DNA of 44,357 nucleotides, counting the filler, from Jimgerdemannia flammicorona (taxonomy: Eukaryota), in assembly GCA_003990765.1 (NCBI GenBank). It is 2 parts of 2 records of this genome, joined end to end, with 100 filler letters (N's around TTAATTAATTAA, not from the genome) between each part and the next. Parts side by side here need not be neighbours in the genome. Positions count along the whole stretch, not along the records: positions 22,232 to 44,357 come from RBNJ01001331.1; 1 more part is not named here. One strand, 5' to 3'. Under the pieces are notes generated by a model. That model was not told the origin of the DNA, did no database searches, and saw nothing but the letters and a program-made list of their open reading frames with translations. The position numbers and the translations under genes are program-made. Positions 4,037 through 44,357 of the stretch are shown one piece after another (the first letter of the stretch is position 1; each line of letters begins with the position of its first letter).

Positions 4037-4044
4037 TTTTTTTT

Positions 4045-4091
<47 letters not shown>

Positions 4092-11600: not shown

Positions 11601-11655
11601 GATATCTTGAGAGGTGTCTTAATAAGGCTAGATATAACTACCCACTGCTACTAAG

Positions 11656-14752: not shown

Positions 14753-15488
14753 TTTTCTCACCGAGCTCAACATGACTCAATGTGAAACACGATCTCAGCC
14801 CATGTTTACGGTGCAGGTGCTATGATATCATCCCCGGATGCGGCGCGAGGTGCAGGAGCCTCGGAGGCGATGCGGTCCGCTCACATTTTGATTGACCTAG
14901 CAACCGCAACAATGGTAATAAAAAAATTTACGCCTCACATCATGCAGGAATCGGGATACGGTAGCAACATACAAATACAATTACTGTCAAACCTACGACA
15001 CTACTTCTATTTCATTCCGTAAGAACTTGCATAGTTTAATTAATGCTGTTCACGCAGTGCTGGTCAATGGGGTGGCACGACGCGCAAAGAAAGTTTGACG
15101 TGCGAGGTAGTCCAAGCCATCAGTACATGAAAGCAAATAATTAGACAGCAGATATTGTCCATCGGCCTCCTCACAACGTGAAATTATCATTACAGCACGA
15201 CCCTACCCCCTCCCTCCCAGAATAACCATGGCGTGCATGGAAATGACAGGTTCAACACGTGGGTAAATCTTCCCATGCGACGAGCGATGGACGATAATTA
15301 AATCATATGTGATGTATCTTGGTGGCTTTAAAACTACATCCCTTTTAGAGCTGAGGCTGAGCCAGGCTCAGAAATAATTTCATGACGCTTCGGTCTGGAC
15401 GCGAGCCAACAAACAATGCAAAGGGGACAAATTTTCGATATTTAAATCCAAGGTAGCCCCACCTATCTGAATTCAACACATCCACACA

Positions 15489-17295: not shown

Positions 17296-17774
17296 TTACT
17301 TCCCTTCCAGGTCCCACAGCAGGGTCCACAGGAAGATGTAGGTAGCAAGGGTAACTACAGTGGTGAGGAGGACCCAGTTCCCACCGGTCTTGAAAGGGGC
17401 GTTGAGGTTGAAGACATCACCAGCGGTGTGGCGCCTCCACACAGCGATGGCGAGCATTGCGGCGCCGAACACGAAGAACGTGATGCCGATGCGGTAGAAC
17501 TCTCGGGTGAAGATCTTGAGGACGAGGAGGCCTGTGGAGAAAGAGGCGAGAGCCGTGCGCCAGTAGGCGCCCTCGAAGGTGCGCTGGCGGGCTGTGAAGG
17601 GTATAGAGTGTCAAGTTAGGGGTTGCAGTTGCAGATGGGTTTTCGAACAAGAGCAGGTGGTTCGGTATGCATGCCTCGAATCTCGAGCAGCTCAGCGTCA
17701 GTGAGCATGACGCTCTGCTTGCGGTGACCACGTATGAGAGTCTCCTCGCGGTGAAGTTGGGCGTTCAACCTCAT
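17296..17774 (-). CDS. DUF202 (YidH-like) membrane protein, 131 aa, 2 exons (17774-17675, 17591-17296), GC-AG intron
   Basis: Spliced product ...ELLEIRARQRTFEGAYWRTALASFSTGLLVLKIF... matches the DUF202 pattern (ARxRTFxxxxRTAL) and is followed by three hydrophobic helices. Branch point CTAAC and CAG acceptor are present. Confidence 0.85.
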
Positions 17775-17941
17775 GGCAGAGAGCAGAGAAAGGGTAGAAG
17801 GGAGTGAGTGAGTGAGCGTGACTGGCGGATTTTGCAATATAACTATAATGTGACGTCACCCTGACACACTAAGACCTTGCTGCAGCGTCTTTATCTCCCC
17901 ATTCCTCTCCTCCCTCTCCCCGCTCCATCTATTCAAAGAAA
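17775..17941. promoter_or_regulatory. Compact bidirectional promoter with a palindromic CRE/ATF site GTGACGTCAC (17850-17859)
   Basis: 167 bp separate the divergent ATGs. The palindrome is almost exactly central, and CT-rich tracts precede each ATG on its own strand. Confidence 0.55.
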
Positions 17942-20900
17942 ATGCTTGACTCGACACCTCAGCTCTCGCACCCCGCCTCTTCTTCCATTGACACAAACGC
18001 ACATAACCCCATCGCCGCAATACTCGTCGTTGGATTCCACCACGCCTTCGGCCCCATCCTTGAGTTTTGTGACCCACCTTTGCCCGACCAGAAACCCCAG
18101 ACCACCCTCTCCAAACTCGACCTTCCGGAGGAATGGAGTTTCTTACCATTCTTGGCGCTTCCTGGTACGCTTTAAATCGCTGGTCTGTTGATGCAAGCTG
18201 CCATAAGAGAATTTCTGGAATGATCGTCCAAGTTTCTTGGGTGTGCCCTGGTATTGTCTCATTCGGTTTCGCCTGTTCCCATAACGAAGACGGTGCCCAC
18301 CAAAGCGACGAAGACTTCGCCTACTTCCATCTACCCCCAGTCCAAGGTTGGTCAGTAGCACAAACGACCTTGTTCGGCGTGTCATGCAACAGACAGATCA
18401 CCGTCAAGGTACCCAAACCTGCTACCCAGCATCAATGAGTGCCCTGAGTTCTCCGGATTGGTCATTTTGCGTGGTGCAGTGTTCGCTCGTCCTTTCCTTT
18501 ACGCCCGACTTCTGCACACTGCAATTATAGGAGCTGAAAGTTACGACGCCCGAGTTCACGCGCACAATCGTCCAGAAGGCCGTTGTTGTCCTTGCGCGAC
18601 AGGTACGTACACGAAGTCTCGCTGTCCAAAACATGTAGCCACGTCATACACTCACTCACCCTTCTTCATAACCCAGCCCATCTTTGGTCCCATCCGCGCG
18701 AAGCTCGCTGTTGTGACAGCGGCATGGTTTGCGCAGGGCGACTTCACGAATACTGATATACTGAACGTATGTAGCCCGCACGAATTCCTGCATTCGCTTC
18801 CGTTTTGACCGTCTGATATGATCAGTTTTCCAAAGTTCTGTCATCGTTTAACTGTCACCATGCCTCTCAAATCCACACAGGGTTTCTACTCAAGCCTCAA
18901 CACGGTCCTGGCGGGAGAGATTGACGACGCTTCGCTCTACATTGGCACGTCGTTGCGTGAGCTTGTCCACAAGTTCAAGTCAAAAACGCTCACGCTCCTC
19001 AAACTGCTGTTGCTAGAGAAGAGGGTGCGTTGTATTCATATGTTCACGAAACCAACCACGCCAACGAGTTTCTGTCTATCGATTGAGTCTCGATGATTTT
19101 CTTGTTGATTGGAGCGACATCGAAAAGCCTAATTTCTTATCATCAAATATTTTATCTATGCAAATCCACACCGCCCCAACTCTTTCTATGCATGCCCGAA
19201 ACCACTTTTTATCAATCACCGTCCAACTAGATCCTATTTTATGGTTATCCCGTCGAGCGCCTTTGCACGCTCCAGTACTCGCTGATATCGCTGATACCTG
19301 GTATGCCATAAACCATTCTCCCAACGTACATTCGCTCTCGGTCATCTGTTTCCGACCGGCTGACCGTTCCAAAACTACCCCAGGCTTGCTTCGGCACCTC
19401 CAGGACTCGGGTGCCCCTGAGCTCGACACCTCCCGCGACAACTTCCGTCTCACGGAGGCACGCGAGCTCAAGAGTGGCGACAAGCAGAGTCTGCTGAGCT
19501 ACATGGGGTTGCCGCTGTACGTCTTTCAGAAGGTGAGCGGAAGGTTACGCGTTGGGACAGAAAGCCAGGCGAGACGATCAAAGGGCGATCTCTGAGCTTA
19601 ACACGCTGTTCATTCCGCTTCGTAGGGCGCTTTCTTCCAACCCTATCTGCCATTGCAGCAGATAGATATTCTCTCGGCCCCGACTACGTCGGCATATCTC
19701 GTCGGCACAACGAACCAGATCTTTTTACATCATAAAGCGGAGATTGGAGTGGATGTACTGGTCAATGTGAGTCATACGTCATGAATATGATGGGTTGGTG
19801 GGTAGAATTGTATTGCTAACTCTGTGCTGCTTCTACCAGGTGGAACAAGGTACGCTCGAGTTCTACAACCAGGGGCTCTCGAGCCTCGTCGGATTGACTA
19901 TGGCCGACCGGCGATGGATGGATAAGATCTTCAAGACCGTGAACGATACGTGGGACGTGAATGGTAGGTACATGGGCATAGAGGTCGGCGTGTTATACAC
20001 AGAACAGATCGTGAGGTCAAGAGACGAGGATGGGTAGAAAACCCATGGGGTGACGAAGAGCACTTGGTGTTTTATTCCCTATCTTCTAGATCCCACCAGA
20101 CCCACCACAAACTCGTACTCAGGCTCCGACGACTTCCTCCGTGCCCGGTTTGAAGAGTACGTTCTCTCGCTCCTCTCCAGCGTCAAGCATGCACAGTCCC
20201 AACAGCAGGGGGCACAGAGTCGCGAAGAGTCGGCAATGCAGATAATGCAGCAGCAACAGCAGCAGGCTGCGGCGGCGGCGGCGTTGGGCGTCGAGGATGG
20301 CGCGTATGAGATCCCTGCGGGACCTGGAGAGAGAGACACGTTGGGAAGTGGGATGGTGGCGGAGAAGGGTAAGTTGTGTGGGTGTAGAGAAGAGGGGGGG
20401 CAATAATTGCATTTTTGTGTGGAATCCTTTGATTAACGTATCACGTTGTTTTGTTTTTTTTGTTGATGTAGAGAAAAACTATTTGACCGATTACAATACC
20501 AACTGGATCACCGCCTGGTACGCGACGAATAACTACAAGGTGTGGGACGATTATACGGATCACGAGATTTATGAGATTGTCGAGCCAGGGTATGTAATCC
20601 CACAATTGTCTGGGGTTTTGTGTAGGTCGTGCCGTCGTACTCGATGCTATGCTTATCATCGAATCGCGTTCTACTTGGCATGAACGCAGACATCCAGGTC
20701 AAGGCAACTTTTCCATTGAAGACATTCAGAACCAGCTGTCAAAGTACGTCCCGTTAAGTGGACATTTCCTAATTTCGATGCCTAACTTTTCGTTCTTTTC
20801 CTCTTCCTCTTACGTTACATACATCCCCCTACCCCAATGCGTACCGTTACCACCCGTCGCTTCGCTTGCTTTACGTCATCACAGGAATTCACCCCTTTTC

Positions 20901-21995
20901 TACATTCCATTTCCACCCACCACCTGAACCCTAATCCTCCTCCCCCCCTCCCGGCTCCCCTTACCCCACACTCGTTTCTCTCCTCCCCTGAACTTGACTC
21001 GGATTTTTTTTGTCTGAACCGAATCGTCCATATTTCTTTTTCTCCCCTCCTCTCCTCCACCAGCCGGTTCAAGGACCTGAACCTAGACCAGAATCTGGCG
21101 CCGCTCAAGCACTCTCTCGGGAAGGCTGTGACGACGGGCGGAGAAAAGCTGTCGCGCGCCGTGACGAACGGGTCCAAGGGGATTGGAAAGGCGATGGAGG
21201 TATTGTGGGCCGAGTTGGAGAAGGGGTTGGATTCGGGGGCGAGTAGTGCGGCGGGGCCGGGTGAGTTTCTCGGATTTGGGTTCCATTTTGGGGTGGATGG
21301 ATGGATGATGTGATGGGTGGTGGGTGGGGGAATACAGGAGTTGTCCTGTGAATTGGTCTCATGACTCGCTATTTTTGCTTGTCGTTGCAGATCGGGAAAA
21401 GGAAAAGAAGAGACGGTCGCTCGGACCAGTGTATAAATCAGAGGTAGGTTTCGGTGCAACGGTATCGCCAGCGGCAACCTATTTACAGTTTGATCCACGT
21501 CAGTCATTTAACATCTCATACCCTCGCGGATCCCAGACCGACCTAAACCGCTCCCCACTCTCAAGCTACCCCCCGCGCCAAATGACGCCGCTCCGAACCT
21601 CCACCTCCAACTCCGCCTCGACCTCGGGCGATGGCACGATTCTGGGCGCCATCAACCTCGAGGCTACCACCCAGCAGGCCGGCAAGCTACTCTCCAATGT
21701 TGGCACCTTTTTCCGCAACCGCCAGCGCGAGATTGCCACCGCTGTCCGCGAGGGATGGGAGCCCGATCGATCCGCTCCAGCCACAGCCTCTGCGCCACCA
21801 CCCTCCAGCAGCAGCGGTAATAACTACGGCAGGCGCGCCGTTTCGCTCCGATTGCCGACAGTGATGCGGCCCGCATCAGGAGCGACACCCGAGTCGCAGG
21901 CGGGATCGAGATCGGTAAACACCAGGAAGACAAACTTGTTGGGGGAAGAGGGGAAGAGGGTTGAGTCAGGAGCGGGCGGCGGGAGAGAAGCCTGA
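17942..21995 (+). CDS. AVL9: Late secretory pathway protein Avl9 (DENN-related), 14 exons: 17942-18164, 18290-18408, 18531-18602, 18677-18766, 18881-19024, 19231-19300, 19384-19532, 19626-19766, 19840-19963, 20090-20368, 20472-20589, 20690-20743, 21064-21260, 21391-21995
   Basis: Avl9 motifs VVGFHHAFGP, LPFLALPDGAH, TLFGVSCNRQI, VQKAVVV, LLLLEKRILFYG, YSLISLIPGL, FQPYLPLQQ and GSDDFLRARFEEY join across GT-AG introns in frame. The 3' exon structure is less certain (possible in-frame 45-nt intron near 21444-21488). Confidence 0.93.
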
Positions 21996-22131
21996 ACGGG
22001 ACCGGCAGAAATCGGCGATGACGTACCCACCGTCACCGCCGAGGGATGGGAGGGCGTAGGTAGGTGGGATTGGGTTGGGGGGATTTTATTATCTGTCGTG
22101 TGGGCGTTCAGTATCTCGCCAGGGTGCTTGC

Positions 22132-22231
22132 NNNNNNNNNNNNNNNNNNNNNNNNNNNNNNNNNNNNNNNNNNNNTTAATTAATTAANNNNNNNNNNNNN
22201 NNNNNNNNNNNNNNNNNNNNNNNNNNNNNNN
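22132..22231. other. Artificial scaffold linker (44 N + TTAATTAATTAA + 44 N)
   Basis: Exactly 100 nt; the central 12-mer gives stops in all six frames. Confidence 0.97.
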
Positions 22232-22329
22232 CTTCCCGATGAAAGACCACTTTGTCTAACACTATCGCCATCCTCCCACCACTCTGCTCACAGATCCTTA
22301 CCACCAGACTGCGACGTCGTCTCCCCTGA

Positions 22330-25300
22330 GGACCCCAACCCACCCACCACCCAGTCAACAGATCCCCCAACAGCCCCTCTCACCTCAACACCTTTTCTCG
22401 CAGCCCCAACTGCTGCCCCTCCTCAAATACAAAAAGCCAATGGCCCGCCAGGCCCACCCATACTGCTAACACCCACCCTACAGTAAGCCAACTATTATCC
22501 ACCCCACCCACAAGCCGAGATCTCAAGTCCTCCCAGCAACCCCCCTCCCCCACCAGTCTATGCCCCACACCCAGTCTATCCCCTATCTCAGCCCAATATT
22601 CCCCCAAAACTTCACACTCTCCCAGTCAATGTTCTGGTGTCTGTACATGACCCCCAGCTCGCCCAACATCGTAACACTCCTCACAGTCGAATTGTCCACC
22701 ATCTACCAAATGCTCTGTGCGGAAATTCAGTATGACATTCCTCCGCAACATTCTCCACCATATCACCCAGAACTTGAGAGGAAGCCACCACCATACCTCT
22801 ACACTCCAAGACCAGATACTGGCCCAGTCCCACTCCTCACTGATCCCTGCCACCTGCCACCCACTCAGCCAAAGATCCTGGCCCAGTCCCTGCTGACACT
22901 CTACTCCCTCCCCAATATCAAACATAGTGAGTGGAGCACCCCCCAGGAGCAGTCTATCCCAACACCACATACTAGGTCCCCACACTGTCTCCCCCTCATT
23001 GTCCTGCCAGCACAGGCCAATTTGGTGTGCCCCATCAGCCACACTCCACCAAAAGCCCTTGAACCACAGCCTCCTAATTTCATTCAGCCCCACCAAAGAG
23101 AGCAGATCTCCAGAGGATCCTCAAGGGGATGTTCGCATCTCCCATACCTTCTGCAGCAGAGGCACTCAACCTCCGCCCTGCAGTTCCACAGCTCTTTTCA
23201 ACCACCAGGCTCGCAAGCAATGCAGCCTCTTAGGGAAATCCACCAGGCCAAGACCACCCCTGACTACTGGTCTTGCAAGAGTATCCCAACTGACCTGAGA
23301 CCTCCTCCCCACCCAAATCCAATCCCTAGCCACCTTCATCAGCTTCTTCACCATCCACGCCAGGAAGTCGAGGTGATATGCCACATACCATAGCTTGGGG
23401 AACCAATATATATTCAGGATTAACACCTGCCCTGCTAGAGAGATATGGTGGCCTCCCCAGCTTTGAAGGGCCTCTCCCCAAATATTCACCCTGCTCTCTT
23501 ACCATACTCATGGTAAGACAGAACCATATATAGAGAGGAAGATACCCAGATACTGCACCACCTCACCAGTAGGGACAATTGTTCCAATGACGTCCCCACC
23601 CACTAGCCCATTCCCTAGCACCATCATCTCACACTTATGCCAGTTGAGCTTCACCCCTGAGTGAGCCTCATACCATTCCACAGTCTCCTGAAGTGCCTCC
23701 ACATCCACCACAGACCCAAGTCTAACCACCATATCATCAGCAAAGGCCCCCACCTTCTACACTATACTATAAATAGAGAGCCCTGCTACCTTCCGGCGAA
23801 TCCTATCCATCAATGGCTCCAGCGAAAGGGCATAGAGAATAGGAGACAGAGGGTCCCCCTGAGGAACTCCTCTTCCCAAGGAAAATGCCCTCCCACAGTG
23901 ACCATTACATGTCAGAGCTGCCCGACTGCTTTCCAGCAGACTCAACATTGAGACCCTAAATCTTGGGGGAACCCCAATTCGGTCCAATACCTTGCCCAGT
24001 CACACCCACCATACATGGTCATAGGCCTTCTCCTGGTCCAAAAAGACCAACCTTCCATCCAGTCCACAGGCCTGGGCCCCTTCAATGATACCATGAACTC
24101 ATGCAGTCCCATCTCTTATAAGTTGGCCCCCAACAAAGCCCCACTGCTCCTCCCCCAGCACCTGTTGGGCAACTTTCTGCAGCCTTGTAACAATCACTTT
24201 AGTCACCATCTTTCTATCTATGTCCAGAAGCATGATCGGCCTCCAGTTCTTCCAGTCTTCCCTCCTCCCCTTGTCTTTGTACAATAGGGCCACCAGTCCG
24301 AGATCCTGCTCTCCAACCCACTCACCACTCTGAAGGATATGGTCACAGAGAGCAGCCATCTCACCCAAAACTCCGGAGACATTTACCATCTTCTTCCAGA
24401 AGTCCCATGGCAATCCATCCTCCCCTGGTGCCATCCCAAGTTTAGTAGCTGCCAGGATACTCTGAATCTCCTCTCCCTGTACCGGTAAGATCAAGTCACC
24501 CAGTCCAGCTACCTGCAGTGGCCCCCACTCTTCTAGTGTATCCACAATCGCCATCTCATCAGCACCCCCTTCTCCCTCACTCCACAAGCCCTGCTATCTC
24601 TCCTTCAAAACCCCTAAGATTTGTTGTGTGCCATGTACCATATCCCCATCAGCATTCAGGACCCCATCCCACCGATGTCGCACTCTCCTAGCTTTGAGAA
24701 GTCTTGATAAGTACCTAGTAGGCTGCTCACCCTCCTCAAGTCCCTGCCACCTTAACCTAGCAGCCATGCCCTGCATATGGGTCTCCTCCTCTTCCCTCAA
24801 CACCTGTTGTAGTTCCACTATCTCCAATTTCACCCTCTCTATCCTCCAGTCCTCCACCCCATCAACAGTGAGCAAATCTGCCCAATCCAATTGTAGTCTC
24901 CTCAGCCTACTGGAAGCACACCTTGTGTGCCTCCTCCTCTACCTACTGGCCTCTCTACCAGCTCCTCCCCAATAAACTCTTACAGCCTCTTTCAATCTCA
25001 TCCAGTGGACAGCCACAGGCAAACCCTCACACCTCCAGTGAAAAACTTTTGCCTGAATGTCCTCCACCCACAATTCCCACAACCTCTTCTTGGACAGCAG
25101 GAAGGAGTTAAGGCGCCAATGTCCAGGTCCATCTCCACTCCCCCCAAACTGCCCCTGCCCCACCAGTCCCCAGTGATCAGACCATGGGCACCACTCCACT
25201 TCCAATGCCTTCCAAACATCCGAACCCCAGCACTCCACTGTCAGAATCCAGTCAATCCTTGTACCCAAGCCATTCACCCAATGTGTGTAGATCCTGGCAT

Positions 25301-25853
25301 CACCCCACTTTGTTCTGCCTATATCCCCCAAGGAGCTCAACACCTCCACCTCCTCCCATGCATCCAGACCTCCACTTCTACCCCTGACACTCCTCCCTCC
25401 ATCAGTTCTGTCCAGACACTGATCCCAAACTATATTAAAATCTCCACCAAGCACATCGACCCCTTCCTCCAGGAGAATACCCTCCTCCAGCAGCCCCCTA
25501 ATCCATGCAGTCCTCTCACCCCTATCTGCAGGGCAGTAGCAAGAGCCCACCTTCACTGATTCTCACCCTGGCCAATGCCAATCTCCCCAGACCAAGCGAT
25601 CGCCCCAGCTCCTGATTCCCCCCAAGTCTCCTCTGCTCTTCCTCACCAAAATCGCTACCTTTCCAAACCAAGCAGTAGCCCCATCCCATTTCCTAGTTCA
25701 CTCTACCTGATCATCCTCATCCTCACACTGAACATCCTGTAGTAAAAAGAGATCAGCCTCCAATCCCTTGAGCTAAGTAAAAATGTTCTTATGCTGCCCA
25801 GAGCCCCTTAACCTATTCACATTCAAGGAGAAAATGTTGGTTATACTGTTCAT
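22330..25853 (-). pseudogene. LINE ORF2: APE endonuclease, reverse transcriptase, C-terminal Cys/His finger (end approximate)
   Basis: SLNVNRL, LLQD, GGDFN, RIDWI, SDH (endonuclease). APGEDGLP, WRPIMLL, GVPQGDPLSPILY, AFADD, YLG (RT). CEEC...TPEH...EC (finger). Several stops and frameshifts. Confidence 0.92.
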
Positions 25854-25884
25854 AAAGAAAAATAATATATCATAGTCCCATCCT

Positions 25885-27918
25885 CTACAAGTCCGCACTC
25901 TGCTCCTCCTGCACCAAGTCTAAGTTACGTTCAGCAGCTAGTTCCCTCTCCCCAGCTTCTCTTGCTGCCAACTCTCCCAGAAGTTCCACCATTGCCCCAT
26001 CTTCATGCTCCTCAAAATCCTCACGATATTCTAGACAGGCCTTCTGCCAGAGCTGCAAACCATGACACTCTGCCCAGCAGTAGGCCACCTGCTCACCAGC
26101 AACCACCCCCAGCTCTGCCTTCCTCACCTCATCAACCTCATATCCCTCCTCCTCCATGAAAATTTCCAGAACCTCCACCTTCAGTGCCTCCACCATTCCA
26201 TCACCCTGCAGAATCTGTGCCCAATGCTCCTGAGGCATCGCCCACAGGTCCACTTCTCCCAAAGCTTCTGCTGCGAGATTATCCATCACCTTGCACATCC
26301 ACAACAAGTTCCCCACCTCCTTCCCTCCTGGAGTCCCTGGCTGCCCTGCATTCAGCATCGTAGTGTCAGCTCCTACACTGGCAGCCTCATTCCACTCCTT
26401 CTCAGGGACATCCACCAGCTCATCCTCACCAACTGCCACCACCTGACCCCCTTGCTCCACATCAGGGACCCCAAAGTGCACCTGCTGGGCCCCCTACATC
26501 TGTGTATCCTCCATTGCCTCTCTCTTTCCAATTGGGCCCCTCCTGATAAGAGGGGGGGGGGTGGCATCCAACTCCAGCTCCCACACTTCAAAGGTACCAT
26601 CAGCAAATGGGTCCTTGTTCAGCTTCTTCCCAGCCTCTGCCTCCTTCGCCTCCACCTCTTCTCCTTCTTTATCAGCCCAGATACTAGCCTTAACACCTCC
26701 AGACTTCTCAGCTCCAATCAACATCTTCTTTACCCCTTCTATCATACTTGCCAACAGTTCCCTCTGCCTCTTGCATCTCTGGGCCTGCTCCCACTGCTTC
26801 TTATCCATATGGATATGCCTCTTGCCCACAACCTCCAGATGCATCGACTCCTCATACAGTTTCCAGGCCTTCATCCTCCTCTCCACAGTACCACTCAACT
26901 CCTCCAGCACCTCCAACAAGTTCTCCTCCTCCTCCTCACTCCCTTTCACCCTCGACACCTTGCAGACAATGGCCCCCCACATCAGCACTGAGGGCCAGTC
27001 ACTTGTCTTCCCTGTAGCCTCCTTCCCTGCCAACTGAATCCTGACATTGACATCGCCCATCCTAAAAGATGTCCCCTCCCACAACTGAAAGCCAATGTCC
27101 ACCACATCACCATACTCGACCATCACCTCTTCTACCCTCCTCCTAGTCTCCTCCTTAGTCACTGTGAGCACTCCTCTCACCAGAAGCTGCACCACTCTGG
27201 GGTCCCACCTTAAGCACCTCACCATAGAGACCACCACCTCCCCCACCACCACCCCAGTCTTCATCGCCTCATCCAGTGGGCCCGCCTCCTCAAAGCCCAC
27301 CTCAACCCCTTCCAGTCCCTTCAAAAACTTCACTGAGGCCACCCCAGCCACCTGCTTCGAAATCAGCCCCAGCACTATCCTCACCATTACTGCCAAGCCA
27401 CAGAAGCACAAGGTAACTGTGAACTCCGAGATTGACTTCTTGAGCAATAGGGCCACTGCCAGTCCCGTTACACCATCTGCCAGGTCCCCCTTCTGCATCG
27501 AGAACCCCTGCCCCCCCTGACTATCAGCCGTCACATCTCATTTTTTTTTCTGATTTGCCATCATGCCACCATCAGCAGTCCTGCCACTACCTCCAGCAGT
27601 CCCTTCACTTCCCCCACCTCCTGCCAGCGAAGGCCCAGCTCCCCCAGCATTCTCATCCTTCTGCTTCCCCTTCCCTCCTACCTGTCCACCATGAGTGCCC
27701 ATCAGCCAGCCCCCATCCCTCAGCATGTCTGCAAAGCTCCTCCCCTGCTTCTCTCCAGCCCCCCCACCAGTGCCACCTCCACTACCCGAGCTGCCCTGCC
27801 CACTCAAGCTACCCAAAGACCCCATTCCCAATCCATACCCTCTCCCGACATGCTGCCAGTTGAAGGCCCCAGGTCCACCTGACCTAGTACATATGTCAGC
27901 TTGCTTGCTGGTTGACAT
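25885..27918 (-). pseudogene. LINE ORF1 (~680 codons, two internal stops)
   Basis: ORF pieces 27538-27939, 26494-27534 and 25885-26481 are in the same frame. Gly-rich N-terminus, RRM-like segment (VQLLVRGV...YGDVVDI...GDVNVRI) and acidic/coiled C-terminus. Confidence 0.7.
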
Positions 27919-28013
27919 CTCCTTAATCTCTTTCTCCAATAAATGATTTGAAAGTGTGTTGGAAAGTATGTGTAACGTGAATTATAGCAGAGAGAGATGG
28001 CTTCTTCTTTTTG

Positions 28014-28396
28014 GAGAGAGCCAATCCCAGTTGTAGGATAAAAATCACAAACAAACATAAACAAAACAAATCCAAATTGAGATTAAAAAACATTCTTACC
28101 CCCTCTGGAGTCTCATGCTCACTCTGGGGTCTCAGTCTTCACTCTACTCCCCTCTACTGCCTTTGACCCCTCACTTCACTTGAGCTTACTCTGGGGTCTC
28201 AGCCTTTACTCTACTCCCCTCTACTGCCTTTAGCCTCTTACTTTACTTGGACTTACTGTGGCTTACTCTGTTTTGGCCTCACCCCTCACTCACACTCACT
28301 CCTCTGGAGTCTGCAGATGTTTTTTAATCTCAATTTGGATTTGTTTTATTTGTATTTATTTGTGATTTTTATCCTACAACTGAGATTAGCTCTCTC
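28014..28396. repeat. 80-bp inverted repeat (28014-28093 / 28317-28396) enclosing two 67-bp tandem units
   Basis: Arms differ by ~6 transitions. Tandem units at 28118-28184 and 28185-28251. Direct repeat cctctggagtct at 28102 and 28301. Confidence 0.9.
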
Positions 28397-32954: not shown

Positions 32955-35900
32955 TATAATGGTTCTAGTTTCTTTAAGAGGAAGTAGCTAAATCTAGAAG
33001 TTCTAGTAAGTCTAAAGTAGCTTGAAGAGATACTTAAAGATTCAAGTATTCTTAAAGAATTTCTAGGAGAAAATATTCTAAGCTTTATTCAGATAGAGAA
33101 TATAGATATTTATATATAATTTGAAAAAAAGATCTGAAAGAATCTTGAAAAGAAAGAAAAATACCAAGAAATAGATTCTTGGCAAAGCTGATTAATATAA
33201 TTCTACAATATTTCAAAAAGTTCTATAACTAGCTAAAATAAGATACTTGGTACTGAGGAAAGACAAGAATGTTCTAATAGTGTCTAGACACTGAGAGGAG
33301 ATTTTCAAGCAAGTAGAAGGTGCTGAAACATAGTAGAATGTTCAAGAAATAATAAGAAAAGACTAGCTAAAAGATATATACAAAAATATACTAAGACTAA
33401 ATATGACTGTAAAATTGTTACATCTCTTCCTCCTTAAGAACCAACATCTTTAATAAGTTCTTAGGTAACATAAGACTAGATATACTTAACCAAAATTTCT
33501 CAAACTTGTATTGGCACATTGGTGAAGATTAGCTACTCTCATATAGAGCAGAGGACCTATTACCAGACTAATCAACATAGAGAGATTCAAATCTAGCTAG
33601 TAGCTTTATTTTTAGTAGACTTCTTGTTTATTAAATATTCTGCTAGTTCTGAGGTCCCAAAGTAAACTTCTGATGCATAAGACACTGGTTATTACTATAG
33701 ATCATCAATAATCCAAAGAAGTCACTATAGGAATTAGGTAATATATTTTGTCTTAAAGTCTTAAACTAGATCTTGAGAGTTCTTAAGATTGACCAATAGT
33801 TCTCAGATAGTATCATATTTAGGGTAGCCCATCCACTTAACTAGATATTCAGGACAGCAGTAATAGATTCATTTGTTAAGGATTTTCTCAGCTTTATACT
33901 CAATATGATCTTTAATAATCACAGGAGTAGATGGCTTGAGAATTCAACCAGAATAGAGTAGTGACTGGTTCTAGGTCTTAAGGTGTGATACATAAAAGAC
34001 TAGGTATACTCTCATGGTTTCAGGTAGCTTGAGATAGTAGGAGAATGTAAAGACTTATTTGATAATTTCAAAAGATCCAATATACTTAAATTGGAACTTG
34101 TTTGACAGACAATTGACTTGAGATTGTATCTTGAGATTTTTGGTAAAAAGTAGGACTTGATCTCTAATAGTATAAGTGATATTGTGGTATTTCTTATCAG
34201 TATACTTAGCTTGATGTTGTTTGGCTTTCTGAAGATTCACAGTGGCAATCTTAAGTAGTTTGTCCATTTTATCTATAAGGCTCTTAGCAGTAGAAACTTA
34301 TATTTGACTGTTTTTTTTTTTGAAAGAAACTAGACTTATAGAGGTCTTAGAATCTTGACCATGGAGTAACCAAAAAAGAGAAAGGCCAGTAGATGATTAG
34401 ACAGTATTATTGTATACAAACTCCATATAAGTCAGATAGTAGTCCCAATTATCTTGCTTATAATAAATATAGTTTCTAAGCATCTGTTCTAGAGTTCTAT
34501 TCATATACTCAATTTGTCCATCAGTTTGTAGATAGAAGGCAGTAGATATAGCCAATTGGGTTCCCAGAGTCTTGAAGAGAGTTTACCAAAGTAACTAGTG
34601 AACTTGGGGTCATGATCACTGATAATTACTTGTGGTAGACTATAGTCTTGATCAGGTAGTCAATGAATATGATGATAGCATTAGTACCAGATTGAGTTCA
34701 TGGTAGTTAAGTTATAAAGTCTATTGTAACTTGCTCAAATTTCTTGATGGAAATTGGCAGTAGTTATATATAGCAAACTAGCTAGTGTTTGGTTAGTAGA
34801 CTTGTTGCACTGATATAGATCACAGCTAGTAATATAGTTCTTGATTTCCTTAATTATACTTGGTTAATAATAGTGGTATTGGATGTTCTTAACAGTTTTC
34901 TCAATTCTAAGATAATTGGTGAGAAGAGAGTCATAGTATTCTTACAAAATCTTATAATATAGGTTCATGTTTTCAGATAGATAGACTTGATCTTAATAAT
35001 AGATCAGGTTGTTCTTGACAGTATATATATCCTTGAGCTCATTTGAGAAAATTCTAATAGTGACTATATCTTCTTTGTAAGCTTGTCTAATTTGATCTGA
35101 AAATTCTGATACCAAGGTGACTTGTATGATTGTGGTAAGGTCTGGGCATTATAATAAGATATCTGGTACTGTAAGTATCTTTTCAGGCTTGTAGATGATC
35201 ATTGGGTTGAAGGTTTGAAGCTTAAGGCTCTATTTGGCTTGTAAATATAACAGAGTAGATTGGGTGTTAATGTACTTGAGAGATTAATGGTCAGTAATGA
35301 CATTAAACTCAATACTTTCTAGGTAATATCATCAGTAGTCTAGTACATATATTATTACCAGTAGTTTCTTCTTGTAGGTGACTAGCTTTTATTTAGCTAG
35401 GGCCAGCTTGTGGGACTCAAAAGCAATAGAGCAATGTCCTTTATCATCATCTTATAACAGAACTGCTCCAATAGTAAAATTCAATATATTGGTAGTGACT
35501 ATGAATTTTAGGCTTTGATCTGCATTATACAGGACTAGAGTATAGATCAGACAGTTCTTGAGTTCTTAAAAGACTTGTTGACAGAAGAGATCTCAGATGT
35601 AGAATATATAGCAATCTGAGTATAAAACCTTTCTCATGAGGTTAGTCAGTAGCTCAGCAATACCAGATAAGTTTCTGACAAAGTAACAGTAGTAGCCAGC
35701 TAGATCAAGGAAGAATTGGAGTTCTATAAGGTTTAATAGAATAGGCTATTCTTGAATTGCCTCTATCTTATGTGGGTCTACTTGAATTCTTTGTGCAGAG
35801 ACAATATAGCCAAGATATTTAACTTATTCTTTGAAGAATTCATACTTCTTGAGCTTGTCATAAAGCTTGTATTTTTACAGGATCTCCAGAACTATTCAAA

Positions 35901-36492
35901 TATATTCAAGGTATTCTTCTTTAGTTATACTAAAGATCAGAATATTATTAAGATATACTAATAGGAAAATAAATAGTTAGTTCTTGAATATCTTGTTCAT
36001 TAAGATCTAAATTATAGTAGATATATTGGTAAGACCAAATACTAAGACTAAAAATTCATAGAGTACAAAGGAAGTTATAAATGCAGTCTTGGAAATATCT
36101 TCTGACTTAATTCAGATCTGGTAGTATTCTGATATGAGGTCTAACTTGGTGAAGTACTTGGCATTCTTGAGAGTATCAAAGATTTGATCAATTAAGAGTA
36201 GTAGATAGCAGTTCTTGATAGTAAGCTTGTTGAGTATATAGCAGTCTATGCATATTTACAGAGTATTATCCTTCTTCTTAATAAATAAGACTAGTAAATC
36301 ATAAGGAGATTTGCTTGGCTGAATAGCTCCTCATGCAAGTAGTTCTTCTAGTTTCTTCTTAACTGCTTCAATTTTGAGTGGTGACATACAGTATATATAT
36401 TTCTTGGTTAGTACAGCTCCTGGGATCAGTTTGATTTCATAATTAACTTCTTATATAGGTAGTAGACCAGATAGCTTGTCTGGAAAGATATC
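32955..36492 (-). mobile_element. Gypsy chromovirus element B (relative of A): 3' LTR 32955-33422, PPT, chromodomain, IN, RH, RT; cut by element C
   Basis: LTR begins like that of A (tataatggttctagtttct) and ends TGTTACA. PPT at 33423-33434. pol is collinear with element A until it stops abruptly at 36492. Confidence 0.9.
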
Positions 36493-37169
36493 TGTAAGAG
36501 GGTTGCTTTTTAGGGTAACCATTATATAGTTCTGAAAGGGTTTTCTGGAAGTTCTGGATATTCTGGAAGACTGTTTTCTTATGGTCAAGATCAATTTCAT
36601 ATAGAGTATGTCCTCTACACTTATTGATTTCAAGATCAGATTGACATCTCAACCAAAGTCCTTCTTCGGACTAGTTCTGGATGTTCAGGATTTTCCATAT
36701 TTCAGAAAGTTTAAGAAACTAAGACCAGCTTAGTTGAATTGGCATATCGCTGCAGACAATACCCAATTAGGAAATTTCATGATGGGGTTAGGAGTGGGAC
36801 CTAACAGGAAGCAGATTTACTTAAGAGTGATTTGTGGGTTATTAAATAGGTTTATTTGCTATTCATGATATTGCTATACTAGGAGTAGTTGTATAAAGGA
36901 ATATTGTGGAGAAGTGTTCAGGAATGTGTTTGGATTGTTCAAGTCTGAGATTCTGAGGTCTGGGGGAGGGGGTATTTATACTAGTGAGGGGCTATCTAGA
37001 CTATGCTAGATATAGATGTAGCACTAAGTATTTTGCTGAGTCAGAATGCAGTCACATAGTACAAGTGTGATCTGATATGTCAAGAGATTGTCTGACTGCT
37101 GAGTCAGTTTACAGTTATATCATACAAGGCTAATCTAACTATACTATGACTGCTAAGCTATTTATAGGC

Positions 37170-38267
37170 TTAGACACTGTCTGGGTAGTCTTCGATGACA
37201 TCACCATCAATGATATCATCTCTGATGAAGTAGTCATCTAGGAAGAGTAGTTCGCAGATTACTTCTCCTTGTTCACTGAGGTAGTAATACATTGGGACTT
37301 CATCACCATCCAACAGAATAGCATCATCTGTCTCATATGCTGGATAAGGTGTTGGTGGACAAAGGGGTGGTACACCATCTTCACTTTCATCAAATTCACT
37401 GTCTGCATATCTTCTATAGGTTATAGCACTATGAGTCACAGGGTTGTAGTAAGCTGGCGGCTGTGGTTCATATCGCTTGTACTCAGGTGGTGGAGTTGTT
37501 GGTTTGATCTCAAGGGTTGTCTGAAAGTACAGGTTGTGTTCTTCGGTTTCTTCATTGTAGTTGAAGTAATCGGAAGTAAACGCGGGTTGGTATTCATGCC
37601 AGTGGTCATTGTCCTAATAAGTCTCGTATGTGGTTATGAACTATTATAAGTTCATTGGCAAGGTTGGTGGTATGATCAGGGTTGGTAGAGATTCTTGGCT
37701 TGAGGTCATGTCAGCATCAGAGGGATCATTGTCTTCTGCTTTGTCTTCATCAAATTGGATTATATTGTAGATGTCCTTTATTGCATATCCGACTTGAGGC
37801 ATTTGCAAGATGTGGTCATCAGGGTGTAGGAAGGTTCTGTCTGTGGTTTCAATATACTTGAGGTACTTGTGGTTGAGTTCTTGTATCATGTCATTGATTT
37901 GGCCATAGGAAAGGGTAGCAACCATTTTGCTAGTAGTAACTCAGAGGCAGGAAATAAAGGTGCTGTATTCATAGAAGAGTTCTCAGTATTTGCAGGTGAT
38001 GAGCTTCTGGTGTTGAGACATCTGGGTGATATCTGTATCATGGTGGTGTTTGACTATATCTTCTAGAAGGTGGCCAATCTGGTAGTAGCTTGAGATTTGT
38101 CCAATTTAGTAGGCCTTGTTGAGCATGTTCAGGGCATTCCATTGGGCTTCCACAAAGTAAAGAGGTGCTAGACTATGGATATTCATGAGGGGCAGAGGAG
38201 GTGTGGCTCAGTTGACAATAGCATTCCAAATGTCAGCGCGGATGCAGTTATAGATCTCAGTGGTCAT
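37170..38267 (-). pseudogene. 365-codon accessory ORF within the U3 of the element C LTR
   Basis: ATG at 38267 and ORF-track pieces 37644-37925 and 37170-37439 are all in one frame with no frameshift. All 7 internal stops (TGA x3, TAA x2, TAG x2) revert by a single C>T. Acidic C-terminal half with PPEY and PPAY. Confidence 0.75.
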
Positions 38268-38460
38268 GTTTGTGTGTTTGGAAGTTATGATTATTATTTG
38301 TTTTTGGTTCTCTGTTTCAACATATCTCAGTACTCAGTATATATATATTTGGTTCTGATTGGTAAGATTTTGTTTGTGTAAGTCTTGTGTTCCATGACTT
38401 CATATTAACTCAGCTTTGTATGCTGTGACTTCAGTTTGACTCAGCTTTGTGATCAAGCAG

Positions 38461-38570
38461 GTGATTTCCAGATTTGTTCAGAGGTCGTATGTGATTTCGG
38501 TGGCTTGTTCAGAGGGTGATATGTGATTTCGGTGGCTTGTTCAGAGGGTGATATGTGATTTTAGTGGCTT
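38461..38570. repeat. ~32-bp tandem repeats (about 3.5 copies) at the U3 start of the element C LTR
   Basis: Unit gtgatttcggtggcttgttcagagggtgatat at 38491 and 38523, with partial/degenerate copies on either side. Confidence 0.85.
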
Positions 38571-40104
38571 GGAGGTTGTGCGCTTACAACTCTCCTCTTC
38601 TTAGCTTTCAACGTCCTCATTGGGGTCTTCTAATTTTATTCTAGTATTGTTACACCATTCAGGAGGTCAAAAGTCTGGTAAAGTCCATTTTTTTTCAGAA
38701 AGTGGCATGCTCATAGTACAGTTGCCTAATGTATTGGATTCATATATTAAAGGGTTGTGTATTCAATATCATGCACCAGAAGTGATTCTGATGTTATTCA
38801 CTACTAGAGAATTTCCTCTAAGGAATCTTCTTAAATATCTATGCCTTGTTTCCCATCAGTGGTATAGGGAGAATAGGCTGGCTTTCAGTTTTGCTATTTT
38901 TCTAGAGGATCAGTATTCTTTTATCTTGACTTGCTGAGTTCTTGATTTTGTTCGTGATAATTATAATGTTCAGGAGATAATATATAGTATGTACTGATAG
39001 GTGTCAGAGTATTCAGATTTCAATTGTTCAAGGAATCATATTCCTGAACTAAGTCAGTAGCATTCTGGAGATTGGTCTTGGGTTCCCATGTTGCATCATA
39101 GATCAGGTATTCTTTCCATTTGACAAGGTACTCAGGGTGGTTCTTGTTGCCACATTTGTTGAGGATTTGTTCAACTTTATATTCTTCTTGACCATTAACT
39201 ATGACAGGTGCAGGTGGTTCAGTGGTCCGGTTTGGGAATAGCTCATTGTCATTTTCATTATATCACTTGAGACATTGGACATTAAAGACTGGATAGATCT
39301 TAATGGTGTCTGGTAGTGCCAATTTGTAGAAAGTAGGAGAGACTTATGTGATAACTTCGAATGGTCCAATGAACTTACTGTTTAGCTTTGTAGATAGTCT
39401 GTGCTTGAGGCTATCAACTCGGTATCCTCAGATATCTAGTAGAACTTTTTCTCCAATATCAAAGGTTTCTTCTCGGTGATGTTGGTTAATGTACTGTGAC
39501 TATTGTTCTTGAGCTCATGATAAATTCTCGATTGTGATCTGGCTTAGATTACACATTCGAAGCAGGAATTCTTCAACAGCTTCAACTGTGGAGGGTTCTT
39601 CAGTGGTTCGGATAAGTGTCAAAGAGGTGTTTGGGTTTTGTCCAGTATTGGCGAAGAATGGGGTCATTCCAAGAGAGGCTTGCTTGCTGTTGTTATAGGC
39701 AAACTTAACTGCAGTGAGGTGTTCATGCCAATCATCTTGTCTGTAGGAAATATAGTTCCTCAGTATTTGTTCCAGAGTTCAGTTCATTCTTTTAGTTTAG
39801 CCATCAGTTTCAGGGTGAAAGGCTGTGGATAGTGCAAGTTTTGTTCCAAGGTGTGCATAGAGGGCTTTTCAAAAATGGCTGGTGAATTTCAGATCTCGGT
39901 CACTAATAATGATCTTAGGAAGACCATGATAGTAGAAGATATTGTCAAACAAGAGTGTGGCTATGTCTGGTGCTGTTGCAGTGGTGGTGGTTGGTACAAA
40001 GTGGGCTTATTTGCTGAGATAGTTCACAAAGACAATAATTGCATCTTTCCCATTCTTGGTTTGGGGTAGTTGTACAATGAAGTCCATAGAGATTTGTTCC
40101 CAAT

Positions 40105-40200
40105 GGAGGGGGGGGCCCCCCTAGGGGGATTGGATAGGGGTGGTTTCATTGTAATTATATAGGATAGATGAGTATTAATAAAGGAAGGAAGTCCAAGCGA

Positions 40201-40268
<68 letters not shown>
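40105..40268 (+). mobile_element. Short poly(A)-tailed retroposed insert (LINE 3' UTR or SINE-like) in the element C integrase
   Basis: Perfect TSD agagatttgttcccaat (40088-40104 / 40269-40285). AATAAA at 40177-40182. ~66-nt poly(A). Confidence 0.9.
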
Positions 40269-40272
<4 letters not shown>

Positions 40273-42854
40273 ATTTGTTCCCAATTAGCAGATGATACTG
40301 GGATAGGATGGAGTAGGCCAGGTTTTGCTAGTATTGAGGACTTGTTCCATTGGCAGGTATCACAGGAAGTGATGTAGGTCTTGAGTTGATCTGCCATATG
40401 GGGCCAATAGAAGTTTCAGGAAATAACTTCATAGCATTTGTCAAATCCTAAATGTCCAGCTGTAGGTGCATTATGATATTCAAATTGGATAGTCCTTCGG
40501 AGGTCTCAGTTGTTTGGGACATATAGTCTGTCCTTGTAGTAGATAGCATTATCCTTGAGTTGGTATTGATGGTACCAGGTATACTTGTCAGTATCATCAC
40601 TATTCAGAATTTCTCGGAATGCTTGGGCTTCTTTATCATCAGCACATGCTGTGATAATTTGTTCCATGATGGAGTTTATAACCAGGGTGAGAGTTTGGAT
40701 AACTTCTTCAATGGGTGGTCTGGAGATTGCATCTGCAACAATGTTTTCCTTGCCAGAGTGGTACTGGATTTCATAGTCAAAGTTGGTGAGGACTTTTATC
40801 TATCTGGCTTGCTTTGAGAAAGGGTAGCCTGTGTGTTGACTAATGACTTATGGTCAGTTAATACAGTGAAGTGTGCTCCTTCTAGGTAGGGTCGCCATTT
40901 GATCAGAGTGTCTATGATGGCTAACATTTCCTTCTCGTGAGTTGTGTAGTTGATTTCAGTATCATTGAACTTGTGGGAATGATAGGCCACAGGGTGTCCT
41001 TCTTGCATGAGTACTGCTCCAAGAGCTAGGTCAGAGGCATCAGTAGTAACTTCATATGGTAGAGCAGGGTTTGCCACTTGAAGTACTAGAGTGGTTATCA
41101 AGGCATCTTTCAATGCTTGAAAGGCTGTATCTTGTTCAGGTCCCCAATTTACAAGATTGTTGAAGTCTTTCTCTTGTTTCATGATCCAGGGTTATTCTTT
41201 TTTCTTACTATGCTTGGTCATTTGGGTAAGGGCAGTGGTAATTTTGGTGAAGTTGGTAACAAATCACCTATAATAGTTTGTTAATCCCAGGAATGACTGG
41301 AGGTCTTTCAGCTTCTTGGGTCTGGGCCAATCTTTGATTGCAGAGATTTTGCTGGGGTCTACTTTGATTCCATTCAGTGTAACAATGTGTCCAAGAAATT
41401 GGATTTCCTTCAGGAGAAATTCACACTTACTGAGTTTTGCAAAGAGTCAGTTTTCTTGGAGTTTTAGTAGTACTAGTTCAAGGTGTTCAAGGTGTTCCTC
41501 CAGAGTTTTGCTGAAGACTAGAATATCATCAATGTAGACAACAATGAATTTGTCTAGGTATGGGTGCAGAATGGTGTTCATCAGGGTCTGGAAGGTTGCA
41601 AGAGCATTAGTTAAGCCAAAGGGCATAACCAAAAATTTGAAGTGTCCATAGCGAGTTCAGAAGACTGTCTTGTAGATATCTTCTTCTTTTATGGCAATTT
41701 GCCAGTAACTACTTCACAGATCAAAAGAGCTCATAAATTGCAGGTTGGTAAGCCTATCAAATATATCATCAATTCTGGGTAGTGGGCAATAGTTCTTGAT
41801 GGTCTGTTTGTTGAGATCTCAGTAATCAATGCACATTCGTAGATCTCCTCCTTTCTTCACAACAAAGAGGACTGGTGCACCATAAGGTGATATACTAGGT
41901 CTGATGAATCCTTATTCTAGGAGTTCATCAATTTCTTTCTTGAGTGTATCAATTTCTCTCAGAGACATATAGTAGATTGACTTGAAGGCTGGCTTGGCAT
42001 CTGGGATGGTCTTGATGGCATGGTCTACTGCTCATTTAGGAGGTAGGCCTTTCAGAAGCTTCTTTGGAAATATGTCTCTGAATTTCTGGAGTAGTGGTCT
42101 AACATGGCTATCAATTTTGGAAAAGTCTTCTTCAGAGTTCTCGGGTTCTTCTTTGGATGGGCGAATGGAGATAGCAAAGAGAGGGCATTTTTTGGCTAAT
42201 TTCTTGAGTTGTAGCTTGTTGATATGGGTGATCTTTGGTCCAGGGTTGCTAGAACTGAGTGGGTCCTTTTCGCCTTGCAGTTTGAAGTTGTGGCATCCTT
42301 TCTTGATAGTCAGAGAATGGTTTACCCAATCAATCATGGGGTTCTCTTGTTTCAACCATGGGGTTCCAAGAATGATCTCATTGTCAGGAAGTGGTATGAT
42401 CTGGAGGGTAATATGTACTCGATAGTCACCAATTCAGAAGGGTAGGTTGCAGACTTCCTTGCTAATGATATGTGAGGTTCCATTAGCTGTAGCAACTGCT
42501 TGAGTTTGTTGTACTGGAGAGGTGAAGACCTTGAGTCTATTGGCTGTTTCTTCATTGATGAAGTTGCCTGAGATACCGCTGTCTATCATAATCTTGACAA
42601 GTGCTCAGTTAATAAAAGCTTAGAGTGTAAGCAGTTTGTCTGATCCAATGGTGGTGATTTTGGTTGTAGGAGTTTTCCTTCTCTTGATTCTTCTTTGAGC
42701 CAATTCATTGATACAAGAGAAGCAATCATCAATCATTCGGGAAGAGTACATTCCAATGCCATGAGGGCATCAGCCACTTAGTACATATCCATCTTCAATT
42801 TTCTTATAGAATTGTTCTTCTTTGTTCAAGATAGATTGGACTGGGGCCTTGTTT

Positions 42855-43265
42855 GATAAGCCAAATCCTTTGGATCCTTGGATGGTAGGTAGTAGTTCAG
42901 GGACTTTCTTGACTATCAGGGTTGATTCGATTTTTTTGAATAGGATCTGGGCAATGCAGAAACCAATAGGGATCTTGAAGGGTGTCCAACTATGGTTTTG
43001 GATGAGAATAATGATTTTGCCTGTGTAATCTTTATCAATGACTCCTCCTTCTACTGAGAGTCCTTTCAATACTAGGCTGCTGTGACAGCATATTCTTCCA
43101 ATATGTCCTTCAGGAATTTAGATGCTGATTCCTGTGTAGACTTGCTTGACTTCTTGGTTGGAAACTGTAGCTTCTTCGGCTGCATACAGGTCATATCCAG
43201 CTGCTTTTTGACTTCCTTTGGTTGGGGCCTTGGTAGTTTGTCTTAACTTGACAAAGTCCAGTATT
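42855..43265 (-). pseudogene. dUTPase domain of element C
   Basis: AAGYDL, GRICCHSSL, GGVIDKDYTG, GFCIAQI, QGSKGFGLS. Confidence 0.92.
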
Positions 43266-44195
43266 CTGGTGGTCAGATTGTTGAGGTGGTGCAGAGTAGT
43301 AATAGTTACTTGTATTGCTGTTCAGGTTTTTCAATTAGGGCAGGCACTGGCCATGTGTCCTGTCTTTCAGCAATAGAAGCATGCTTCACTTCTTCGAAGT
43401 TCATTTCTTTCTCCTTCAGTGAGTTTCTTGAAGGTACTCAGCTGGGTGGGTTCATAATTTCTGGGTATCCAAGAGGTGGATGTTAAGGGAGCTCGGGATG
43501 CTTCATGCTTGGGTTCTTCTTTCTTGGTCCAAGTCTTTTCCTTGTTGTTGAATTGTCTTTGAGGCAGAATTGGTCCAGCTGTTAGAATTTGCTTGACCAT
43601 GGTCTTGATTCTTACCAGGCACCATTGTTGGTGATCACAACCAACTGGGTGGCCTTGTTCTCAGATTTTTCTAGTAAGCCATTCAGATAGTGCATTGAAT
43701 AAATGGTCTGCTCTTGTACCATTTTGTGCTTCATCATTGGCAATATATCCTAGGCCAATAGTGTTCAGAAGTGACTCGAGTTTTGTATAGAAGGTTTCAA
43801 ATTCTTCCTTGTCATGTATATCGAATTTGAGGTTGTGGAGTTTTACTCAAGATTCAGCAATCATGGTTTCGCTGCGGTATTGAGCAATTATGAGTTGTTT
43901 GAGTCCAGGGGCTGCAGGATGGACTCCATATCCTGGGGTATTGTTTGCTGCATTCTAAGCAACTACTGTAGGTCAGGTGTCCCATGTGAGGGGTTTTTCA
44001 GGAAGGGTTCGCCACCATTCTTTGGCAGGTCCTCGGAAGAATGTAACAACTTGGCAGACATAGGCTGTAGTGGTAGCAAAGAGTTATTCTAGAGTGTGGT
44101 CTTGATTGTTTATCAGGAGGCGGTCAGCAACTTGCTCATTGGTCTATTGATTGACTTTGAAGTTGGTGTCAACTACACTAATGAAGTGTTGGACT

Positions 44196-44197
<2 letters not shown>

Positions 44198-44246
<49 letters not shown>

Positions 44247-44332: not shown

Positions 44333-44357
44333 TCTTTTTTTTTTTTTTTTTTTTTTG

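Follow-up and report, generated by a model that had tools for sequence, protein, structure and literature searches.

We analysed a 44,357-nucleotide stretch of DNA (hereafter the window, filler included) from Jimgerdemannia flammicorona, made of two parts of GenBank assembly GCA_003990765.1, of which positions 22,232 to 44,357 come from RBNJ01001331.1. The window contains three related retrotransposons of the gypsy type, designated elements A, B and C, all lying on the minus strand. We focus on a 2096-bp block at the 3' end of element C (36493-38588, minus strand), which has the features of a long terminal repeat (LTR), and on a frame of 365 codons inside it (37170-38267, minus strand), which is a pseudogene with seven internal stops in this copy and probably an accessory gene in less decayed ones.

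Structure of the locus

Element C is a chromovirus, with reverse transcriptase (RT), RNase H and integrase in the gypsy order and a C-terminal chromodomain. Its interior (38603-44190, minus strand) encodes gag, dUTPase, protease, RT, RNase H, integrase and chromodomain, as identified with Pfam. The matches included RVT_1 (5.6e-29), RT_RNaseH_2 (2.3e-31), Integrase_H2C2 (1.2e-16) and Chromo (2.8e-13); rve reached 5.9e-05 and 23.7 bits, below its cut-off of 32.6. The dUTPase domain (Pfam, 1.2e-28) occupies approximately 42770-43240 on the minus strand, between the zinc knuckle of gag and the protease. The pol frame ends with the chromodomain near 39020, and a non-coding spacer of about 430 bp leads from there to a 13-nt polypurine tract (PPT), AAGAAGAGGAGAG (38590-38602, minus strand).

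The block begins one base, a T, past this tract and extends from 38588 to 36493. Its ends form terminal inverted repeats, TGTAAG (38588-38583) and CTTACA (36498-36493), which match at six of six positions, and a run of at least nine purines followed by TG occurs between 36400 and 39100 only at 38602-38590. At the other end, the nucleotide homology between elements A and B stops exactly at 36492. Position 36493 is therefore an insertion boundary, and it follows that all 2096 bp lie between the PPT and the insertion site of element C. The element that was entered, B (33000-36492, minus strand; recognised by Pfam and by its homology to A), is an older gypsy copy with RT, RNase H and integrase that was split by the insertion. 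Its protease-RT linker lies at 36492, and the Pfam RVT_1 domain begins 71 residues beyond it, with RNase H and integrase after that. The block and the interior of C agree in G+C content (0.401 and 0.403, against 0.315 in B) and are close in the observed/expected ratio of CpG (0.23 and 0.16, against 0.0 in B). The 3' flank of the block in the window is GATAT (minus strand, 36492-36488), and no second copy of the 2.1-kb block is present within the window.

Element A (6039-12062, minus strand), a complete relative of B and C, provides a reference for the build of such elements. Its LTRs are 405 bp long and 91% alike, and it is arranged as a PPT, one nucleotide, TGTAAC, the remainder up to ATTACA, two nucleotides and a primer-binding site (PBS). 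The sequence that follows its 5' LTR is a decayed copy of a PBS of the TGGTAGCAGCGG type, and the element is flanked by a 5-bp target-site duplication, CAAGC/TAAGC. The initial annotation of this DNA had described a 2096-bp segment bounded by TGTAAG and CTTACA that reaches from the PPT of C to the break in B, as well as neighbouring LTRs of only about 400-470 bp. All coordinates of that segment were verified on the minus strand, and the LTRs of A, at 405 bp, agree with the statement about the neighbours.

The block in contigs of other sequencing runs

Contigs placed on the block at a likeness of at least 80% were obtained from four public runs (X1-X4) that belong to three studies, comprising two soil metagenomes of one study and two sources designated organism A and organism B; the longest contig among those listed measured about 400 nt. 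Several of these contigs bear on the ends of the block. Two contigs of X2 continue from 36493 through 3 nt into TGGTAGCAGCGG, a PBS of the kind seen in element A, so that in other copies the 36493 end is the end of a 5' LTR. This PBS presumably fits the 3' end of a tRNA (...CUACCA); no tRNA gene was found within the window. At the opposite end, a contig of X2 passes from 38586, via eight letters, to position 37930 of another copy; this joint reads as the end of one LTR nested in another LTR, that is, as a nested insertion. A further X2 contig, with a joint from 38642 to 38930 whose shorter side has 80 letters, covers the spacer after pol and the PPT and reaches 25 nt or more into the LTR. The interior of C is therefore linked to this LTR start outside the window as well.

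The open reading frame (ORF) is likewise connected to its surroundings in other copies. Its start is bridged by an X4 contig (38125-38344), and its stop is bridged by contigs of X2 (37132-37346) and X4 (36943-37224). Three patterns in the depth of these contigs were set aside. Depth was higher over 36536-37205 than over the ORF, and higher over the ORF than over the internal part, which might have suggested that LTR copies outnumber internal ones; since parts cannot be ranked by contig depth, the pattern was not counted. A rise in X4 depth at about 36938, where it goes from 12 to 5418 roughly 35 nt past the TATA box discussed below, was considered as a transcription start and not counted either, since depth is unusable for this purpose and the status of X4 as RNA is a guess. 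Bins lacking X4 coverage (most of 38546-40000, where three of 11 bins hold 0.89-7.67) were not taken as evidence.

We consider it highly likely that the whole block is a single LTR. The claim that it behaves as one LTR of chromovirus C is supported, in that its PPT and 5' end are built as in A and a PBS follows its 3' end in other copies. It is conceivable that the true LTR is short, reaching from about 37200 to 36493, that the ORF is internal and lies between pol and a downstream PPT, and that the TGTAAG at 38588 is coincidental. A TGTAAA is indeed present at 37113, the LTRs of neighbouring relatives measure about 400 bp, and the 5' LTR of C is outside the window. However, neither this word nor the one other TGTARR word in the scanned interval (36619) is preceded by a purine run, which leaves the tract at 38602-38590 as the sole PPT followed by TG. 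The sequence of PPT, one nucleotide and TGTAA there is built as in element A, 38588 pairs with 36493 over the full inverted repeat, and 38586, in the nested X2 contig, abuts unrelated sequence from inside an LTR, as expected of a mobile end. We therefore regard a short LTR as very improbable.

A coding frame in the probable long terminal repeat

The frame from 38267 to 37170 contains seven internal stops and a terminal stop, while the other five frames of the interval contain 9, 17, 26, 28 and 37 stops. It lies as a whole between the LTR start (38588) and the TATA box TATAAATA (36980-36973), and its placement in the unique 3' region (U3) assumes that TATAAATA is the promoter. With this assumption, the block very probably has a gene-carrying U3 of about 1.6 kb. 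The presence of one sense frame upstream of the TATA box, as initially annotated, was confirmed on the minus strand.

Searching with the frame read with X at the stops (query P0001), a full HMMER pass over 1.84 billion representative proteins returned four matches, two of which are relatives and two of which are repeat-inflated chance matches to bacterial-type proteins. The first relative, P0003, is intact over 128 amino acids, has the same MTTEIYN start and is 84% identical to the window frame; it is ended by the edge of its 1180-bp contig. The second, P0002, is intact over 247 amino acids, shares the C-terminus and is 62% identical (156 of 251 positions identical and 201 of 251 similar), with two in-frame alignment gaps of two residues each; it is encoded on a 998-bp contig. 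An alignment-based search among protein sequences of 30-69 amino acids gave no match. At the DNA level, scans of metagenome_contigs and genome_contigs, as well as scans of viral_contigs with the ORF and with the RNase H piece of C, gave patterns and no confirmed relative.

In the relatives, the stops of the window copy are read as R20, R54, R95, R109, Q208, Q209 and W218. It had been proposed that all seven revert by C>T. Judged by the intact relatives, this holds on the sense strand for five of them (R20, R95 and R109, each from CGA, and Q208 and Q209), but the stop at W218 arose by G>A and that at R54 requires both changes (CGA to TAA). Compared with P0003, 19 of 21 residue differences are C>T or G>A on the side of the window, which identifies the window copy as the decayed one, and in nine of these 19 a CGN codon has become TGN, CAN or TAA. 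The window copy is dead: C>T and G>A transitions, many of which fall on CpG, inactivated it along with all other parts of C. In elements A, B and C, as well as in the repeat at 22-28 kb, the ratio of observed to expected CpG ranges from 0.0 to 0.23, compared with 0.97 in the host-like stretch at 14000-22000. This contrast indicates that the transposable elements decayed by CpG-directed C>T change of the methylation type, and not by classical CpA-directed repeat-induced point mutation.

The contigs of the four runs also restore sense codons. At 37643 (A>G, stop 209 to CAG) the restored base accounts for a depth of 434.9 out of 525.3 in X1, 57.2 out of 57.2 in X2, 18.7 out of 18.7 in X4 and 12.7 out of 12.7 in X3. 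At 37615 (T>C, stop 218 to TGG) the corresponding values are 957 out of 957 in X1, 42.3 out of 46.3 in X2 and 12.7 out of 12.7 in X3. Among the 40 places listed of 835, these are the only two that fall on the seven stops, and at both the sense codon is carried by most contigs of all four runs. Judging from the intact relatives and from these contigs, the frame is a real coding frame and not a product of chance. The earlier proposal of an accessory coding sequence is borne out to the extent that the frame is family-specific and open in less decayed copies (P0002, P0003 and the contigs).

The predicted protein

The N-terminal part of the product is predicted to be helical, with helices in residues 3-141 and almost none beyond (secondary structure from an AlphaFold2 model based on a three-row alignment, with a mean predicted local distance difference test score, pLDDT, of 31.1). 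The C-terminal part (142-365) has an isoelectric point of 4.05, with 49 D+E against 9 K+R, 24 prolines and 21 tyrosines, and P0002 is alike; this acidic, Pro/Tyr-rich tail is probably disordered. The division into a helical N-half and an acidic Pro/Tyr-rich C-half, suggested at the outset, is consistent with these results. By family and fold, the product is an orphan in the collections searched. Its best match in Pfam was RAMP at 17.6 bits, below the cut-off of 27, and P0002 and P0003 had none; NCBIfam contained no match for the product, sequences in the PDB included no solved relative (best E 0.065), and the Atlas offered no usable feature match for P0002 (template-modelling score, TM, at most 0.30).

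We consider it probable that the ORF is a protein-coding gene in intact copies of the element. An alternative, which we regard as rather unlikely, is that the LTR is truly long and the frame is a non-working relic, such as a fragment captured once into U3, which is open in a few young copies for lack of time to decay. A relic would be in keeping with the failure to find any matching fold, family or motif, with the two singleton relatives and the open-frame bias of databases described below, with the compositional bias of the C-half and with the antisense frame of the interval, which also contains just nine stops. It is more difficult to reconcile with P0002, which is 38% diverged and yet open over 247 codons, with in-frame gaps only and 80% similar residues. 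When codons 115-365 of the window copy were drifted neutrally to 62% protein identity in 1000 simulated runs, with substitutions and no insertions or deletions, the frame remained open in eight runs at kappa 2 and in 19 at kappa 6, that is, in 0.8-1.9% of runs even before such length changes are considered. Both the start and the stop of the ORF have been retained.

Several observations weigh against a working gene in a duplicated LTR, some of which would also suit a relic. The 1.84 billion representatives yielded only two relatives, both singletons on contigs of about 1 kb, and among them no full-length intact copy of the ORF; these relatives are subject to ascertainment bias, since protein databases list open frames only. 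P0002 begins at a methionine aligned with residue 115, and the N-terminal part may be absent or separate in its subfamily. One X4 contig (record 27) matches from 37224 downwards only, and some copies are, as judged from this contig, more than 20% different, or altogether different, upstream of that position. None of the runs recorded as RNA contains the block, X4 being merely guessed to be RNA. The AlphaFold2 model is unusable at its pLDDT, and the Atlas model of P0002 has a pLDDT of 0.39. The idea of a PPxY late domain was dropped, as the two motifs of the window copy have no counterpart in P0002.

Promoter-like modules and other signals

The LTR contains two groups of repeats that resemble each other and look promoter-like, one on each side of the ORF. 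At its 5' end, U3 has 3.1 tandem copies of a 32-nt unit (38474-38571, minus strand), the copy number of which varies in X2, where joints in this zone skip 63, 64 or 88 nt. Two 31-nt repeats, each with a TGAGTCA-type site, follow at 38385-38446 (minus strand) and are proposed as the upstream promoter module of the ORF. A TATA-like (TA)n run (38337-38348, minus strand), about 70 nt upstream of the ATG, may be the core promoter, as far as its sequence can tell. Downstream of the ORF, a repeat scan identified two 40-nt repeats with TGACTCAGC in each (37034-37136, minus strand), located upstream of the LTR TATA box. This box, TATAAATA (36973-36980, minus strand), is the presumed promoter of the genomic RNA and would place the border between U3 and the repeat region (R) about 30 nt downstream; the LTR of element A has an identical TATAAATA, followed by C/T-rich bases. 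A candidate polyadenylation signal, AATAAA, is present in R (36851-36856, minus strand). Four of the 13 TGASTCA sites of the window, which we take to be of the AP-1/Gcn4 type, fall in the 2.1-kb block, which makes up 4.7% of the window, and three of those four are in the promoter-like modules. Rfam gave no match on the block at E up to 0.1, and a scan of the block for bacterial promoters and terminators, which is not relevant to a eukaryote, stayed at shuffle level.

The repeat pairs at 37034-37136 and 38385-38446 flank the ORF in inverted orientation and are 71-73% complementary over 41-45 nt. Such repeats around the ORF (37035-37138 and 38401-38445) would suit the idea that the segment is foreign, either a mobile element of unrelated origin or some other DNA, and was inserted into the 3' LTR of a single ancestral copy without belonging to the replicating element. 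We considered an insert bounded by terminal inverted repeats and retained it as a minor rival only, because the flanking repeats are weak and their likeness is centred on the palindromic TGASTCA site. Moreover, the start of U3, the ORF and the TATA region are tiled by contigs from the four runs and three studies, and none of the ten joints among those listed removes the ORF. In a replicating element, any insert located between the PPT and R would in any case become part of both LTRs. A foreign insertion confined to one LTR is accordingly given little credence.

A proposed model

Taking the two parts together, we lean toward a decayed 3' LTR of a Ty3/gypsy chromovirus whose U3 carries a family-specific, 365-codon gene in sense orientation. 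The interpretation given in the initial annotation is supported in part. The U3 of the lineage of C would have grown to about 1.6 kb and come to hold the gene. Reverse transcription copies whatever sits between the PPT and R to both ends of an element. From this mechanism, and from the same contiguous arrangement over many contigs in several runs, we infer that the block is duplicated to both ends, so that the gene would be present at both ends of every new copy and be retained in a solo LTR. It counts against this step that the duplication of the full 2.1 kb has to be deduced, as the 5' LTR of C, like its target-site duplication, falls beyond the limits of the window.

With respect to expression, the first U3 module (the 32-nt tandems, the two TGAGTCA-type repeats and the TA-run) may drive an mRNA of the ORF, which would run through the second module and end at the LTR polyadenylation site (AATAAA, 36856-36851). 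The second module, with the TGACTCAGC repeats and TATAAATA, would drive the genomic RNA. The product would consist of a helical N-domain of about 140 residues followed by the acidic tail. As for function, our preferred guess, in which we place little confidence, is a regulator encoded by the element: it would either activate the LTR promoters by way of its acidic tail or blunt host silencing, in the manner of accessory proteins encoded at the 3' end of complex retroviruses. More broadly, we tentatively suggest that the LTR may have become a self-contained cassette, comprising a promoter module for the gene, an orphan acidic protein of 365 residues with a regulator role and a shared polyadenylation site; two copies of the gene per element would then persist, and could remain active, in solo LTRs. 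This fuller version is doubtful.

Other features of the window

Element C itself is decayed, and its 5' end is either outside the window or lost in homopolymer tracts. On the plus strand these comprise an A-run of about 69 nt (40203-40271) and T-runs of 49 nt (44195-44243) and at least 23 nt (44335-44357). A G+C-rich stretch of about 90 nt separates the two T-runs, and the start of the gag frame is lost there. Possible origins of the tracts are retroposition of inserts that end in poly(A) tails, expansion, and errors of assembly.

The region from 22000 to 28000 has a G+C content of 0.52, a strong negative GC skew and a CpG ratio of 0.21. Long minus-strand frames in this region appear RT-like by eye, and two frames at 24-25.6 kb resembling long interspersed nuclear elements had no Pfam match at E up to 1e-4. 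Within an 80-nt inverted repeat (28014-28093 and 28317-28396, 93% complementary, arms separated by 223 nt) sits a tandem duplication of 67 nt (28117-28250). This structure lies where the G+C-rich repeat borders on the A+T-rich nest of transposable elements.

Comparison with known systems

Among fungal chromoviruses, those that bear a dUTPase (PosPlaTy3 and elements of Phanerochaete and Tuber) resemble element C, which has the order gag, dUTPase, protease, RT, RNase H, integrase and chromodomain. The likeness is one of domain order. In PosPlaTy3-3 of Postia placenta, the dUTPase is at the N-end of Pol (PMC2864245). Unlike in element C, no LTR-borne ORF is mentioned for elements of this type in the portion available of that source (PMC2864245).

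Additional ORFs (aORFs) are a second point of comparison. Those of Grande, RIRE2 and Retand, as well as env-like ORFs, are, like the present frame, extra ORFs that are specific to a family and occur in the majority of its copies. According to the portion available of PMC7264820, the aORFs of LTR retrotransposons are internal and in most cases lie between pol and the 3' LTR, whereas the ORF described here is behind the PPT; PMC7264820 uses none of the wordings 'in the LTR', 'within the LTR' or 'inside the LTR'. As far as partial views of open-access text extend (supplements and Repbase/Dfam entries aside), no retrotransposon ORF in an LTR or U3 turned up in the literature.

A gene borne in U3 is otherwise known mainly from a few retroviruses. 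The sag gene of mouse mammary tumor virus (MMTV) encodes a superantigen and is located inside the U3 of the LTR. The initial annotation had called the present arrangement MMTV sag-like, and this remains apt for the layout, in that a whole ORF of roughly 1 kb, in sense orientation, is in U3 (presumably so in the window) upstream of the LTR promoter and, in sag, thus in both LTRs. It does not extend to the protein, for the ORF has no sequence or predicted structural likeness to Sag and no evident transmembrane segment, and it is known here from sequence alone. The host also differs, not being a vertebrate, and the element is without env. The nef gene of human immunodeficiency virus and bel/bet of foamy viruses start upstream of the PPT and merely overlap U3. 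They resemble the present ORF as accessory or regulatory genes at the 3' end that are situated on LTR sequence, and the acidic tail would be compatible with an activator role; they differ in that here the whole ORF is behind the PPT, and no homology to them was found.

Should the cassette LTR prove true, LTR retrotransposons would for the first time have a counterpart of the accessory genes that retroviruses carry in U3, a novelty that is conditional on the 5' LTR holding the ORF. Because the protein has no relatives outside this family, it may be the product of a gene that was born de novo, or evolved fast, within a mobile element. Solo LTRs are the commonest remnant of LTR elements, and a gene behind the PPT would double at each transposition and outlive its element in them. 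The annotation of solo LTRs would then change, as these would have to be considered as possible genes and not as promoters alone. Such an element would also offer a non-viral system for asking why retroviruses put accessory genes in U3.

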